Source: Hormiphora californensis
Lineage: Eukaryota; Animalia; Ctenophora
NCBI GenBank assembly: GCA_020137815.1
Contig: CM035357.1
Span: 1,488,001-1,552,000, forward strand
Direction of reading: 5' to 3'
Length of the DNA: 64,000 nucleotides
In this document: positions 46,101 through 56,277 of the stretch, piece after piece
Layout of the letters: every line of letters begins with the position of its first letter
How positions within the stretch are numbered: the first letter of the stretch is position 1
Position numbers and translations under genes: made by a program
Notes under the pieces: model-generated
What the model saw: only the letters and a program-made list of their open reading frames with translations
Told to the model about the DNA's origin: nothing
The model's database searches: none

Positions 46101-49100
46101 GTGGTCTGACTCATCTTGTGATTATTCGAGGATGCAGGGTTCCAGGTTGTGACAGTATTGTGAAGACATGTTACTAAATAGGTCACCTTCGATACACTGG
46201 CTCCACTTCCTGAAAGAAATTGTTGTTATGGGAACTGTTGTTATGCAACTGTTGTTATGCAACTGTTGTTATGCAACTGTTGTTATGCAACTGCAAGTAG
46301 GAGGGGTGAAGAAAATCATACTGCCCTCTCCGAACCGGACAGTCTTCAGTCAGGCGCGGCAAAGAAATAACTTAGTTCATCAGAATGTAGAATGAAAGAG
46401 TCCTTACGTATGGCCTGGGATCCTAGCAGAGAGAGTGTAGAGTTGATGTTTGAAACACTATCCAGAATACTGTCACAACATGAGTTCCCAGTGATACGGG
46501 GGATACTAGTAGTGCAGCCTCGTTGGAGTAGGTGGAGCAGGGGATAGTCCGATTTACTACCTGGAATAATGATGGGTTGGTTAATGGTTAGAGGTCTCTA
46601 GATTCTAGGTAAAAATTTGAAGCTAGACAGGCTTTGAGTTTGAGGTCATGTAATGGAGAAGTTTGATAAAAAACTATTTTGAATGATTCTGGGGCTAATC
46701 TGTTTAGCGGGTCCTAATTTTTTCCCTGCCCGGATGCCTTTTTACTTTGTAAAAAGGCATAGCAGGGTTAGAATTCGAAAACGACATTTTGGTATACTAA
46801 CTAATCGGTAGAGGGACCATTTTGGTCACACTTTCGTTGCGAGGGGCAACCCGGTACCACCCGGTGTACTCAGCGTAGCAACTGAGCCGCGCACACAACA
46901 ACAAGTTGCTCCTTTATCAAAACTTACAATGGCACAGTTTGATGGACGTGTATGCGCGCGCCACTCAACAAAACATGAATAGCGCTGCCGCGTGTTTCGC
47001 GTGTTACATACACATTGTCATGTCTTGCGAGTCGAGTGTGAGAGGTTAGATAAGTAGTTAAGTTGGAATGTCAAAAGCTGGTTAGCATGTGTCATGTGAG
47101 TAAACTAAGCTATGTGAGAAGTATACTGACAGCTAGATCGTATGCATCTCACATTCCATTATGACCAAGCCTTGATCCTGTTGACAGTGACACGTGAAAC
47201 GGGAGGGCAGGGAAACACAGCATTATGAATACATAATGCAATGATTCTTGTTACTATACCTTGTGATGAACTGGTGCTGAAGTTAAGTACTGATGTGGTA
47301 CTGAGAAAGGTATGGTCTGACCCCCCTGAAGTACTGAGGGTGTCACCCAACACACTCATATCCCTCTCCCAGATCTCGGTAGAATCGAATAGTTCCGACA
47401 TGGGTATATCACCTCCCTCTTTCTCTCCTGCCTGATAGAAGAAATGGGGTGATGATCAGGGATATTGGAATAAATTGAGGTTTGTATAGGTTGTACATAG
47501 TTACAACAAGTTTTGGTAATGAAATTACCCCTCTGTTACTAGTATTATTGCTCATGGAGGCAATAAAAGGGGTGACTTCGTAACCAAAAACAAGTTAGAG
47601 TTTGGGACTACAGAACTCATTACTCACTGCCTAATATGGAAGTGACCAATACCAATTAAGGTATAACACCAAATAAGGAGAATTGTGTGTTTTACCTGCA
47701 CAGCGCAGTAGCGGGCAGTCAGTTTATCAAATCGGTCCAGGAAAGTATCATAACTCCATATCGTCGCCCTATTATGAGCAAAATCAGTGGCCCTCACGAA
47801 CACGTCACTCCGACTATCCATGGGTATCACCTCTCTACTGAACATCTGGAGAGAGAGGGGGATGATTTAAAAAGGGGTTTCTGTAACTCTCAGAGGGATC
47901 AGGGACAGAGATCCAGGGACAGATACCACGTTCTTTCTATGTATTGCTTCACTCACGTCACTAACAACACTAACACTCCCTAACAACACTCCCTAACAAC
48001 ACTAACACTCCCTAACAACACCCATTGCTCCAACACTCCCTAACGAGTAACAAAACCTACCAGATCCTTCTTGATAACTCGACACATCTCATTCGCCTCC
48101 CTAACAACACTCCCTAACAACACTCCCTAACAACACTCCCTAACAACACTCCGTAGCACTCCTTAACACTCCCTAACAACACTCTCTAACAAGTAACAAC
48201 ACTAACACTCCCTAACAACACTCCAAAACCTACCAGATCCTTCTTGATAACTCGACACATCTCATTCGCCTCCCTAACAACACTCCCTAACAACACTCCC
48301 TAACAAGTAACAACACTAACACTCCCTAACAACACTCCAAAACCTACCAGATCCTTCTTGATAACTCGACACATCTCATTCGCCTCCCTCAGTTTCAGGT
48401 ACAGATCCAGTGAGTCATTATTGATAACCGTCTCCGTTGCTGCTACACAGGTGTCTAGATAGGTATTGATCTGTTGCTCCTTTGTCTTAGTTCCAGTCTC
48501 CTGTAGAATAGAGATGATGTCAATGTTGTGTGAATGATTCACGTCTCTCGCTAAAATACGAGATCCATGCTCGACTTAACCTGTGCATTATATCACCGTT
48601 AAATAGTTATCAGCACTTTGTGGGGAATTACAACACAGTGGTTCGTATATTTAAACAGTAGGTGTGTGCGGTGTAGCGTGAATTTGACATTTGACAACGC
48701 TGAGCTAACTGTTCAGGGACGGTTCTAATTGTAAACGAGGCATATAATATGCCACACCTTATCACATACACACAAAGCTCTGGCAAGGGCTAAACTTTTG
48801 TTACGAAGTCACCCCTTTTATTGCATACAATAATAACAGAGGGGTAATTTCATTACCAAGGCTAAACTCATGTTCAGATGATAAAGTTTAAAAAAAATCC
48901 CTTACCGTCCATGCGTCGTGTAGTAACAGCAGTAGTTTATCAGACAGGGGCAGGAGAGCCTTCAGTTTATCTAAAGTACTACAACTCTCACCCTCCTGAT
49001 CTCCACCCCCTCCAGAGGGATCAGACTGAGTTGTGCTTGGGGCTGAACTCTGTAAAGGAAGCGGCTGGTACAGCGGGGTTAGAAATGAATGTGACGAGTA

Positions 49101-55100: not shown

Positions 55101-56277
55101 GTGTTCATTCATGTCTGTAACGGCTACTGCCCTGTTCCTCTTTCCCTCACATAACAGGTCCAATATCTGTCGACCAGTCTCAACATACCTATAGGTAGAA
55201 AATGGCCATGGGTCATGATTGGGTGTTAAATATTAGGAATGGGTCATGAATGAAGCGTGTTACTGGCAACAGCTAACGGCCACTGTCGAAACGTGCACAG
55301 AAAAATAATAGAAGACAGAGAAAGGACACGTACTTTTCTGTAACATTCTTGATGTATGTAGTTCTGGATTTATCCTCGTGAATCGTCAGATTTGTCTTTT
55401 TTGCTGAAAATGAAGAAAGTTAACAAAACTAAATAAAAAAAATTAAAAAAAAAAGTACCGGATATCTTGAAAGATAAAATGGACCCCAAAACGGATACAG
55501 CAATCCGACACCCCAAAACTCACGATCTAATAGATCCCGTATTTTCTCCATGTATATCTCGTAATAACTGATCTTGATAGTAAACTCTGAATTCTGACTG
55601 TGAATGTAGTCGAATATATCATCGATAACTCGGGGAATGAGGCCCCTGTGTTGCCCCTTCAGGGTAGCACCCTCCATGGTATAGGTTTTACCGCTGGAGG
55701 TCTGTCCGTACACAAATATCGTAGCGTTGTACCCGTTCATTAGGTCTGGGGGAGGATAAGGGGTTAGTGTGTCCTACTACCAGGGGTGGCCGGCTGGGGG
55801 TGGTAAGTGTTATAGTGTGTCCTACTGCCAGGGGTGGCCCACCCGGCTGGGGTGGTAAGTGTTATAGTGTGTCCTACTGCCAGGGGTGGCCCACCCGACT
55901 GGGGGTGGTAAGTGTTATAGTGTTTCTTACTACCAGGATGGTGAGTTAACTAAAGCCAGGGAGATAGAGAAATTAATGGTAGAAAAGAGGAATATCATAG
56001 GGGACACAAAAATTAGCTGTACCTTTGACGATTGGTTTGGTTGTTTGTTGATACACATCTTCCTGCGACGTTCCCTCTTGTAACACTTTATCATACGCAA
56101 AACCCTTACCCTGCAGGAGGGGATGATCAATGGTAGATTAACAAGTTAGGGATAGCTTAGAAAGGGGGCGTGTGAGGGTTAACTTACATCGACGAAAACT
56201 GTATCTGAAATCACATCAAAAACATTGCCCCTATCTCCCGGTCGTATTCGTGTTATCACTTTTATATTGTCTCTCAT
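40172..56277 (-). CDS. Kinesin, ~1030 aa, 23 exons: kinesin-1 (KIF5/KHC)-like motor and neck joined to a KIF14 (kinesin-3)-like FHA domain and stalk
   Basis: Exons 5'->3': 56277-56188, 56110-56023, 55745-55524, 55403-55334, 55188-54990, 54841-54682, 54544-54454, 54008-53943, 53810-53668, 53179-52978, 52309-52166, 51970-51875, 51685-51574, 48500-48348, 47845-47696, 47431-47260, 46560-46408, 46209-46064, 45879-45711, 42826-42701, 42270-42098, 40600-40493, 40231-40172. All are GT-AG and phase-compatible (3093 nt). Motifs: [34 protein letters not shown]. The distal exons lack a homology anchor and are less certain. Confidence 0.85.
40372..40480. mobile_element. 109-bp hAT-like MITE, copy 3
   Basis: Same family; TSD ACAGAGAC. 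Confidence 0.88.
40702..41580 (-). CDS. Intronless PIM/PASK-like Ser/Thr kinase, 292 aa, nested in a kinesin intron
   Basis: [45 protein letters not shown] and C-terminal [12 protein letters not shown] and PPE are PIM/PASK-type signatures. Confidence 0.92.
   Translation of the reverse strand: MSPSITTTTAAAVTTTAAVTTACTPATACVSDLYTSIRVLGEGGYGSVMLVQSKEDGSLHAAKVIPDSKCKRKTYCPLRQVRLTDEIILWEELKHPNILNLEEMYFDEPSDSWILIMEYVAGFEDLFSYIDHHDSLSAADARNIIRQLIETICYLFSVGIDHRDIKDENILYNPTTGQIKLIDFGSASLLAERYNRFQGTDVYLPPEFFATGTHGSLPSTTWAIGCLAYCLLNGDCPFNTVMDVKNYKPQGLTFLNPSLDQPSRDFLSLLLTHDEKSRPGLPAVYWHPWMRA
41615..41900 (-). promoter_or_regulatory. Candidate compact promoter of the nested kinase
   Basis: On the minus strand, TATAAG lies ~40 bp upstream of the ATG (41621-41626) and CCAATCAG boxes lie at ~41638, ~41749 and ~41891. 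Confidence 0.4.
42383..42475. repeat. Perfect 43-bp-stem inverted repeat within TAATTGATA repeats
   Basis: CACGAAAACCAAAGAAAACGAATTTTCTGTGTTACGAACGTTT, a 7-nt loop, then the exact reverse complement. Confidence 0.9.
42858..42966. mobile_element. 109-bp hAT-like MITE, copy 4
   Basis: Same family; TSD GAATGGAT/GAATGGGT. Confidence 0.88.
43867..45109 (+). CDS. Small secreted poly-Asn protein with LDL-receptor class A module(s), nested antisense in a kinesin intron
   Basis: Signal peptide [15 protein letters not shown] and two poly-N tracts in exon 43867-44206. LDLa exons are 44356-44498 (C...[19 protein letters not shown]) and 44961-45109 (FQC...[19 protein letters not shown]). Confidence 0.8.
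44573..44880. repeat. (TCTCTA)n microsatellite
   Basis: Direct hexanucleotide run. Confidence 0.95.
46718..47253 (+). mobile_element. Helentron-associated (HINE/DINE-like) non-autonomous element
   Basis: It starts TTTTTTTCCCTGCC, has a subterminal inverse GGCAGGGAAA at ~47206, then the hairpin GCATTATG-AATA-CATAATGC, and ends TTCTTGTT. It has the same termini as 62278-62934, and its 5' part resembles 2142-2250. Confidence 0.72.
49255..49476 (-). CDS. Possible 73-aa single-pass membrane microprotein nested in a kinesin intron
   Basis: ATG-initiated ORF with hydrophobic [22 protein letters not shown], preceded by a CCCGCAG acceptor ~30 nt upstream. No homology recognised. Confidence 0.4.
   Translation of the reverse strand: MTSEGWEFVKGMLTEFPYLYVFLAFSVLTILLSCVCWAWNIAKNHMVLASQRHRISSSLCSPTKSINCGLSVC
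50332..50499. repeat. (GA)n microsatellite
   Basis: Direct dinucleotide run. Confidence 0.95.
52871..52969. mobile_element. hAT-like MITE, copy 5, right TIR truncated
   Basis: Same family; the TSD CCACTAAC duplicates the kinesin splice donor GTTAGTGG. Confidence 0.85.

Follow-up and report, generated by a model that had tools for sequence, protein, structure and literature searches.

A 64,000-nucleotide window of the genome of the ctenophore Hormiphora californensis (assembly GCA_020137815.1, contig CM035357.1, positions 1,488,001 to 1,552,000) carries on its minus strand a gene for a chimeric kinesin, which is a kinesin-1 by its motor and a KIF14 by its FHA domain and stalk, and a full member of neither family. 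The gene comprises 24 exons between window positions 56277 and 40172 and, when spliced by coordinates, encodes 1078 residues with no internal stops, all 23 introns being of the GT-AG type; we hold this gene model with high confidence. An initial annotation had placed a kinesin-1 motor and neck in exons 1-9, followed in frame by a KIF14-type FHA domain and stalk, in a gene ending at 47696. The spliced translation of exons 1-9 does encode the kinesin-1 motifs it quoted, and its junction intron (53667-53180) is of phase 1, GT-AG and 488 nt long, so that exon 9 continues in frame into exon 10, which carries the quoted 11-letter segment. The gene end at 47696 was wrong, as eight further exons lead to the stop codon at 40172, and both the last third of the protein and a shortening of the neck coil had been missed.

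The kinesin-1 identity of the motor and neck is borne out by bit scores, PDB ranking, trees and profile windows. Motor residues 1-312 scored 359-406 bits against 115 kinesin-1 heavy chains, the top three of them ctenophore-type, and 71-179 bits on KIF14 rows, of which 117 of 119 matched, while an FHA domain was present in none of the 119 non-self rows of the motor search among the matches listed. In the PDB, the motor scored ∼336 bits on kinesin-1, compared with 218 on KIF3B, 192 on KIF13B and 190 on KIF1A, and the top 26 rows were kinesin-1 or kinesin-1-based constructs. In phylogenetic trees the motor falls with kinesin-1 and far from KIF14 (branch to KIF14 3.32, chimera stem 0.55); KIF14 is the only well-sampled other family in these trees, which are without sponge, cnidarian, choanoflagellate and fungal kinesin-1 and other kinesin-3 subfamilies. 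A grouping of the motor with kinesin-3 was not seen, trees and scores alike placing it in kinesin-1.

The kinesin-1 portion continues into a neck coil that spans 36 residues both here and in the chimera of Mnemiopsis leidyi described below, compared with 43 in 113 of 113 heavy chains, or one heptad less, and the missing heptad aligns with E/N core positions. The long kinesin-1 stalk and IAK tail, which the initial annotation had failed to see, are indeed absent: a stalk/tail profile gave -1.9 and -0.9 bits in the two chimeras against 657 for the Bolinopsis heavy chain, the corresponding motifs are absent, and the six frames of the window yielded a single chance-level match (E 0.75).

An FHA domain after the motor is a defining feature of kinesin-3/KIF14 (PMC2063646), and the back half of the protein is of this type. 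With residues 400-800 of the Mnemiopsis protein as query, 519 proteins matched among 7994 candidates; among the 119 non-self matches listed, 106 bear the name KIF14 and 13 are unnamed proteins with PF23313, the KIF14 four-helix Pfam domain, so that all 119 are KIF14 by name or domain. A 130-residue FHA stretch scored 70.9-87.5 bits on 119 of 119 KIF14 rows and at most 49.7 bits on eight PDB matches, including KIF1A/B/C and KIF13B, a gap that is somewhat inflated because the KIF14 rows were chosen as best matches. The choice of KIF14 type over KIF1/13/16/28 is a score ranking and not a tree across kinesin-3 subfamilies, with KIF16 outside the PDB comparison. A second stalk block aligns with KIF14 at an hhalign probability of 97.8. 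Further on, a four-helix bundle is predicted at residues 812-917 of the Mnemiopsis protein, ∼315 residues past the FHA domain, PF23313 in KIF14 lying ∼330-360 residues past it; neither Pfam nor hhalign matched PF23313 in the chimera. The prediction comes from a single-sequence fold with a mean predicted local distance difference test score (pLDDT) of 38, used just for these four helices, and the structures that it matched (talin, sensor domains, Z up to 14.2) were set aside as reflecting a common bundle and not kinship. Phosphopeptide binding by FHA domains depends on an SxxH motif. The Ser of this motif is missing in both species and the Arg of the GR motif is missing in Mnemiopsis, which makes phosphothreonine binding by the chimeric FHA domain unlikely.

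In 60-residue windows, the kinesin-1 profile scores higher than that of KIF14 as far as window 341-400, and from window 361-420 onward, across the FHA domain, the order is reversed; the kinesin-1 signal stops near residue 360-365 and the KIF14 signal begins near 392. The junction intron (intron 9, 53180-53667, with the end of exon 9 repeated in tandem) interrupts the protein at residue 376/377, inside this crossover zone (residues ∼360-392), a position that fits intronic recombination without proving it, and of the 171 positions of the Kinesin_assoc model, exon 10 covers only 145-170. No kinesin-3 motor, KIF14 neck or CC1 was found, KIF14 profile positions 640-731 being without counterpart in the chimera, and there is no N-terminal PRC1-binding extension, both models having four residues before β1. 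The KIF14 extension, motor, neck and CC1 have all been replaced.

The fusion, whose presence in relatives the initial annotation had proposed as a check, was found in a gene model of Pleurobrachia bachei (P0001, 508 residues) and a protein of M. leidyi (P0002, KAL5267510.1, 1121 residues). In a search that returned two matches from just six candidates, exon 10 matched these at 100% and 66%, respectively. The P. bachei model, with Pfam matches far beyond chance to Kinesin (E 3.8e-97) and FHA (E 2.6e-07), has the same join, two substitutions relative to the window in shared exons, and other splice choices, and therefore probably derives from a different assembly or haplotype. The Mnemiopsis model is located on a 14.9-Mb contig, and its protein is colinear with the window protein from the start to near the end, where it is 24 residues longer; identity amounts to 228/311 in the motor, 30/48 in the neck, 9/31 at the junction, 83/130 in the FHA region, 65/184 in the stalk and 123/342 in the tail. 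The derived neck deletion and the join are common to the Pleurobrachia and Mnemiopsis models, which come from distantly related ctenophores, and the fusion very probably predates the split between these lineages. Two metagenome scans returned no relatives, and the Atlas leads, all under 0.9, were to FHA-bearing kinesin clusters.

The most likely origin is that a duplicated 5′ portion of kinesin-1 took the place of the front end of a KIF14 gene. The chimeric motor is regarded as a duplicate because Mnemiopsis has a separate, normal kinesin-1 (P0125), which, like its Bolinopsis match, has the normal kinesin-1 stalk motifs and IAK tail. This heavy chain scored 462 bits, compared with at most 433 for ordinary bilaterian heavy chains; three rows above it would be repeated motors, since one exceeds the self-score. 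In a small read run, the loose ends of one contig resemble a normal neck and hinge and give a weak hint that kinesin-1 is retained in Pleurobrachia as well. The same run yielded four short partial pieces, of which none crosses the junction, a result that does not bear on expression. Over motor and neck, the chimera is 60.5% identical to the heavy chain of Mnemiopsis, 110 other rows (excluding P0130, P0172, P0209 and four odd top rows) averaging 56.0%, and the motor likely originated on the ctenophore stem.

In the proposed mechanism, which we consider slightly better than evenly supported as a whole, the protein would be a plus-end-directed dimeric motor that carries KIF14-type cargo on a kinesin-1 engine. 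It probably dimerizes through its borrowed neck coil, and more stably than kinesin-1 because the lost heptad is one that holds polar core positions; such E/N core positions are destabilizing, and stabilized coils retained 55-84% of kinesin-1 run length (PMC2132664). A dimer prediction for neck plus FHA domain scored 0.39 against 0.38 for the control. In human KIF14 with its extension, most molecules diffuse as monomers until dimerized, and the protein lacking the extension moves at 198 nm/s over 0.77 μm (bioRxiv 10.1101/2020.01.30.926501); a kinesin-1 neck would bypass this monomer-to-dimer switch. The chimera is likely to lack both light-chain cargo and IAK autoinhibition, any regulation arising instead from its FHA and coiled-coil region. 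Human KIF14 binds PRC1 through residues 1-356, which central-spindle targeting also needs, and citron kinase through residues 901-1649 (PMC2063646); the chimera would retain the citron kinase-binding part and have lost the PRC1-binding part. Whether the cargo is of citron-kinase type, at midbodies or cilia, and reached by walking and not by PRC1 binding, is in our estimate evenly balanced. That kinesin-1/kinesin-3 swaps can work follows from an engineered fungal kinesin-1 motor with a kinesin-3 tail in Aspergillus, which moved vesicles and rescued a kinesin-3 deletion (PMC3282709).

Two alternatives would remove the chimera altogether. A fusion might be mimicked by two neighbouring genes, or by a false join in the assembly at the repeat-rich junction intron: this intron does contain tandem repeats, suspicious homopolymer runs occur in the window 35 kb away, and exon 9 remains open into the intron with a stop after 19 codons, so that a motor-only product is possible. 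Tandem arrays at exon boundaries are, in turn, no peculiarity of this intron, being found likewise at introns 2 and 15. No second motor was detected in the 64-kb window, and the 488-nt intron is too short to hold one; the FHA exons require an upstream exon, because their first Met is at residue 525, past the end of the FHA domain, and an in-frame stop lies six codons upstream. A misjoin is further unlikely because the P. bachei model, with its own sequence differences, has the fusion and the Mnemiopsis protein is colinear end to end, and the neck deletion is common to both species. We regard an artefact as very improbable. Still less credible, to the point of being negligible, is an ordinary KIF14 whose motor is merely kinesin-1-like, for which one can cite the α4 segment LGKVISAL, as in the KIF14 profile, and the sampling of the trees, with KIF14 as the sole well-sampled other family; the bit scores on heavy chains and KIF14 motors, the kinesin-1 neck linker and neck coil, the branch lengths and the PDB ranking largely refute it.

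Among readings that accept the fusion, a low-force or poorly motile microtubule binder, tethering KIF14-type partners without transport, is distinctly unlikely, and it draws on features that count against a walking motor: the cover strand has four residues before β1 compared with 8-12 in five heavy chains, an eight-residue deletion after RxRP leaves 17 residues compared with 25-28 in the same five, and the neck linker has changed from V to P, one of 25 substitutions common to both chimeras at positions that heavy chains otherwise conserve. The net charge of L11-α4-L12 is +3 in the chimera compared with 0 to +1 in those heavy chains, and force and hydrolysis are tied to the cover-neck bundle and full neck-linker docking (PMC8206134). 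Set against this, both species retain an intact P-loop, switch I and switch II, as well as the neck-linker Asn, and kinesin-1 tolerates neck-coil changes, as the run lengths of stabilized coils indicate. Other observations also weigh against the walking KIF14-type chimera preferred here. The motor has accumulated ∼1.2-1.5 changes per column against 0.2-0.25 in its ctenophore sisters (rooted on bilaterians), and the tree cannot place it inside kinesin-1, with approximately unbiased (AU) test p values of 0.248 for ctenophore and 0.218 for bilaterian heavy chains (the Chara row, too long for rooting, was dropped with eight others from the AU-test tree); diagnostic sites split 11 to 8. KIF14 homology past residue ∼750 was not significant by sequence in Pfam, profiles or hhalign. 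All three ctenophore chimera sequences are gene models from DNA, and no Bolinopsis chimera appeared among the matches listed in homology searches, though Bolinopsis kinesin-1 is in the same collection; the Bolinopsis gene may therefore have been annotated in pieces, be missing or have been lost. Finally, the human FHA-stalk-tail part alone fails to reach the central spindle (PMC2063646), and the equivalent of residues 1-356 is lost as well, so that a different means of targeting would be required for a role in cytokinesis.

A further reading takes the chimera to be an additional paralog that has acquired a function peculiar to ctenophores, such as in comb-plate cilia or neurite transport, next to a normal KIF14 that does cytokinesis. 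The retention of normal kinesin-1 indicates a partial duplication on at least one side, the motor evolves fast, the chimera has, compared with KIF14, no PRC1-binding extension and a shorter stalk coiled coil, and human KIF14 acts in ciliogenesis too (PMC7265313). Yet no ctenophore-named normal KIF14 appeared among the best 120 of 519 matches, a weak observation given that candidates were word-filtered, whereas ctenophore kinesin-1 stood near the top of the motor search. We consider an extra paralog rather unlikely. Tentatively, and at somewhat less than even likelihood, ctenophores may have no normal KIF14 at all, the kinesin-3 motor having been swapped wholesale for a kinesin-1 duplicate, with both the cytokinesis and the cilia jobs of KIF14 performed on a constitutively dimeric engine without PRC1 targeting.

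All exons are on the minus strand. Exon 1 (56188-56277, residues 1-30) holds the start Met, at the same position as in Mnemiopsis P0002 and four residues ahead of β1, and the RxRP motif; an upstream coding exon is possible, since an AG lies 3 nt ahead of the ATG. The motor continues through exon 2 (56023-56110, residues 31-59), located by tblastn and splicing, exon 3 (55524-55745, residues 60-133) with the P-loop GQTSSGKT at residue 73, exon 4 (55334-55403, residues 134-156), exon 5 (54990-55188, residues 157-223) with switch I at residue 184 and switch II at 217, exon 6 (54682-54841, residues 224-276) with the microtubule-facing L11/α4/L12, named after established kinesin structure, and exon 7 (54454-54544, residues 277-306), where the motor core ends. 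Several motor introns presumably occupy human KIF5B positions. Exon 8 (53943-54008, residues 307-328) encodes the kinesin-1 neck linker, with V to P at 317, and the first neck heptad, and exon 9 (53668-53810, residues 329-376) the neck coil minus one heptad, then the hinge. Beyond the junction, exon 10 (52978-53179, residues 377-443) encodes the end of Kinesin_assoc (weak, E 0.019) and the first half of the FHA domain, exon 11 (52166-52309, residues 444-491) its second half (FHA E 3.9e-06), and exon 12 (51875-51970, residues 492-523) a post-FHA motif of KIF14 type. A likely coiled coil, helical in the ortholog's low-confidence model, occupies exon 13 (51574-51685, residues 524-561), followed by a weakly conserved linker in exon 14 (48906-49049, residues 562-609), placed by frame and splice sites. 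KIF14-type features recur in exon 15 (48348-48500, residues 610-660) as the EAN helix, in exon 16 (47696-47845, residues 661-710) as a stalk motif within the region aligned by hhalign, and in exon 17 (47260-47431, residues 711-767) as an acidic W motif ahead of a Ser-rich linker. The predicted four-helix bundle, following the ortholog model, begins in exon 18 (46408-46560, residues 768-818), continues in exon 19 (46064-46209, residues 819-867) and ends in exon 20 (45711-45879, residues 868-923). The tail is encoded by exon 21 (42701-42826, residues 924-965), exon 22 (42098-42270, residues 966-1023) with a helix, exon 23 (40493-40600, residues 1024-1059), the least secure (tblastn E 2.5), and exon 24 (40172-40231, residues 1060-1078 and stop). 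Exons 17-24 were located by tblastn with the Mnemiopsis protein and are less secure than exons 1-16, and the tail exons 18-24 match it more weakly (36% identity). Tandem arrays lie at exon-intron boundaries at 53564-53689, 48165-48389 and 55746-55937, those at exons 9 and 15 copying the exon end with its donor site and thereby creating extra possible donors.

Several other features were observed in the window. Nested in intron 22 of the kinesin gene, on the same strand, is an intronless open reading frame (40705-41580, minus) for a PIM-like Ser/Thr kinase of 291 residues (Pkinase E 8e-50; best PDB match PIM-2, E 1.9e-32), possibly a retrocopy or a member of a mobile kinase family. An 81-residue hydrophobic frame in intron 13 (49258-49500, minus), with a weak, below-cut-off match to an SBF_like transporter (E 0.0029), may be a remnant piece of some nested or relic gene. 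A plus-strand frame at 29092-29730, which contains a Sushi domain (E 6.8e-09) and weakly matches a hormone-receptor domain, probably represents one exon of a receptor-type gene next to the kinesin gene. A dispersed ∼90-bp repeat near 57400-57500, 52880-52970, 42870-42960 and 40390-40480 occurs in several introns, upstream of the gene and in read run X1. Positions 5758-28041 hold ∼22 kb of a minisatellite-like 33-bp tandem repeat (main array 597 copies) with frames open for up to 1388 codons, one of which resembles an 11-residue leucine-rich repeat; within it, 295 G followed by 287 T (18079-18660) are likely an assembly or masking artefact. A 22-bp tandem repeat occupies 35663-38338 (122 copies, 95% matches).

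Kinesins are sorted into families by their motors, with the tail assumed to go along with the motor. In a survey of 45 genomes, none of 64 rows classed as Kinesin-1 in supplement 3 has an FHA domain (its 69 occurrences of "Kinesin-1" being 64 family assignments and five names or descriptions), and KISc-FHA forms a cluster within Kinesin-3 (PMC2867816). In the available portions of two further sources, FHA is mentioned solely for kinesin-3 and animal or protozoan kinesins (PMC1434745) and KIF14 is not mentioned (PMC12599322). No description of the chimeric gene was found in the literature as judged by titles and the starts of abstracts, with subscription papers and bioRxiv supplements outside this coverage. 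A conserved natural chimera tests the modularity of kinesin motors and tails, and this one provides a natural deletion of a destabilizing neck-coil heptad, whose role has until now been studied in engineered mutants. Should ctenophores have lost normal KIF14, the chimera bears on their cell division and cilia building and offers a rare fusion character for ctenophore phylogeny; a wholesale swap, if true, would be natural proof that motors can be exchanged between two ancient families of kinesins.

Compared with kinesin-1 heavy chains (KIF5/KHC; Mnemiopsis KAL5246792.1, Bolinopsis XP_063693431.1), the chimera has the same motor, neck linker and neck coil, with ∼61% identity to the Mnemiopsis protein over motor and neck, but it has an FHA domain and is without the long stalk, light-chain region and IAK tail; its neck is one heptad shorter, its cover strand short and its evolution faster. 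With KIF14 it shares the FHA domain and flanking motifs, the EAN and W stalk motifs and a predicted four-helix bundle at the matching place, PF23313 itself being without a sequence match, whereas the kinesin-3 motor, N-terminal extension, KIF14 neck and CC1 are lacking and the stalk is shorter. The closest parallel in design is the engineered KinA-UncA chimera of Aspergillus nidulans, which likewise places a kinesin-1 motor on a kinesin-3 tail and is functional in vivo, but is a laboratory construct with the fungal UncA tail, and thus neither a natural gene nor a KIF14 (PMC3282709).

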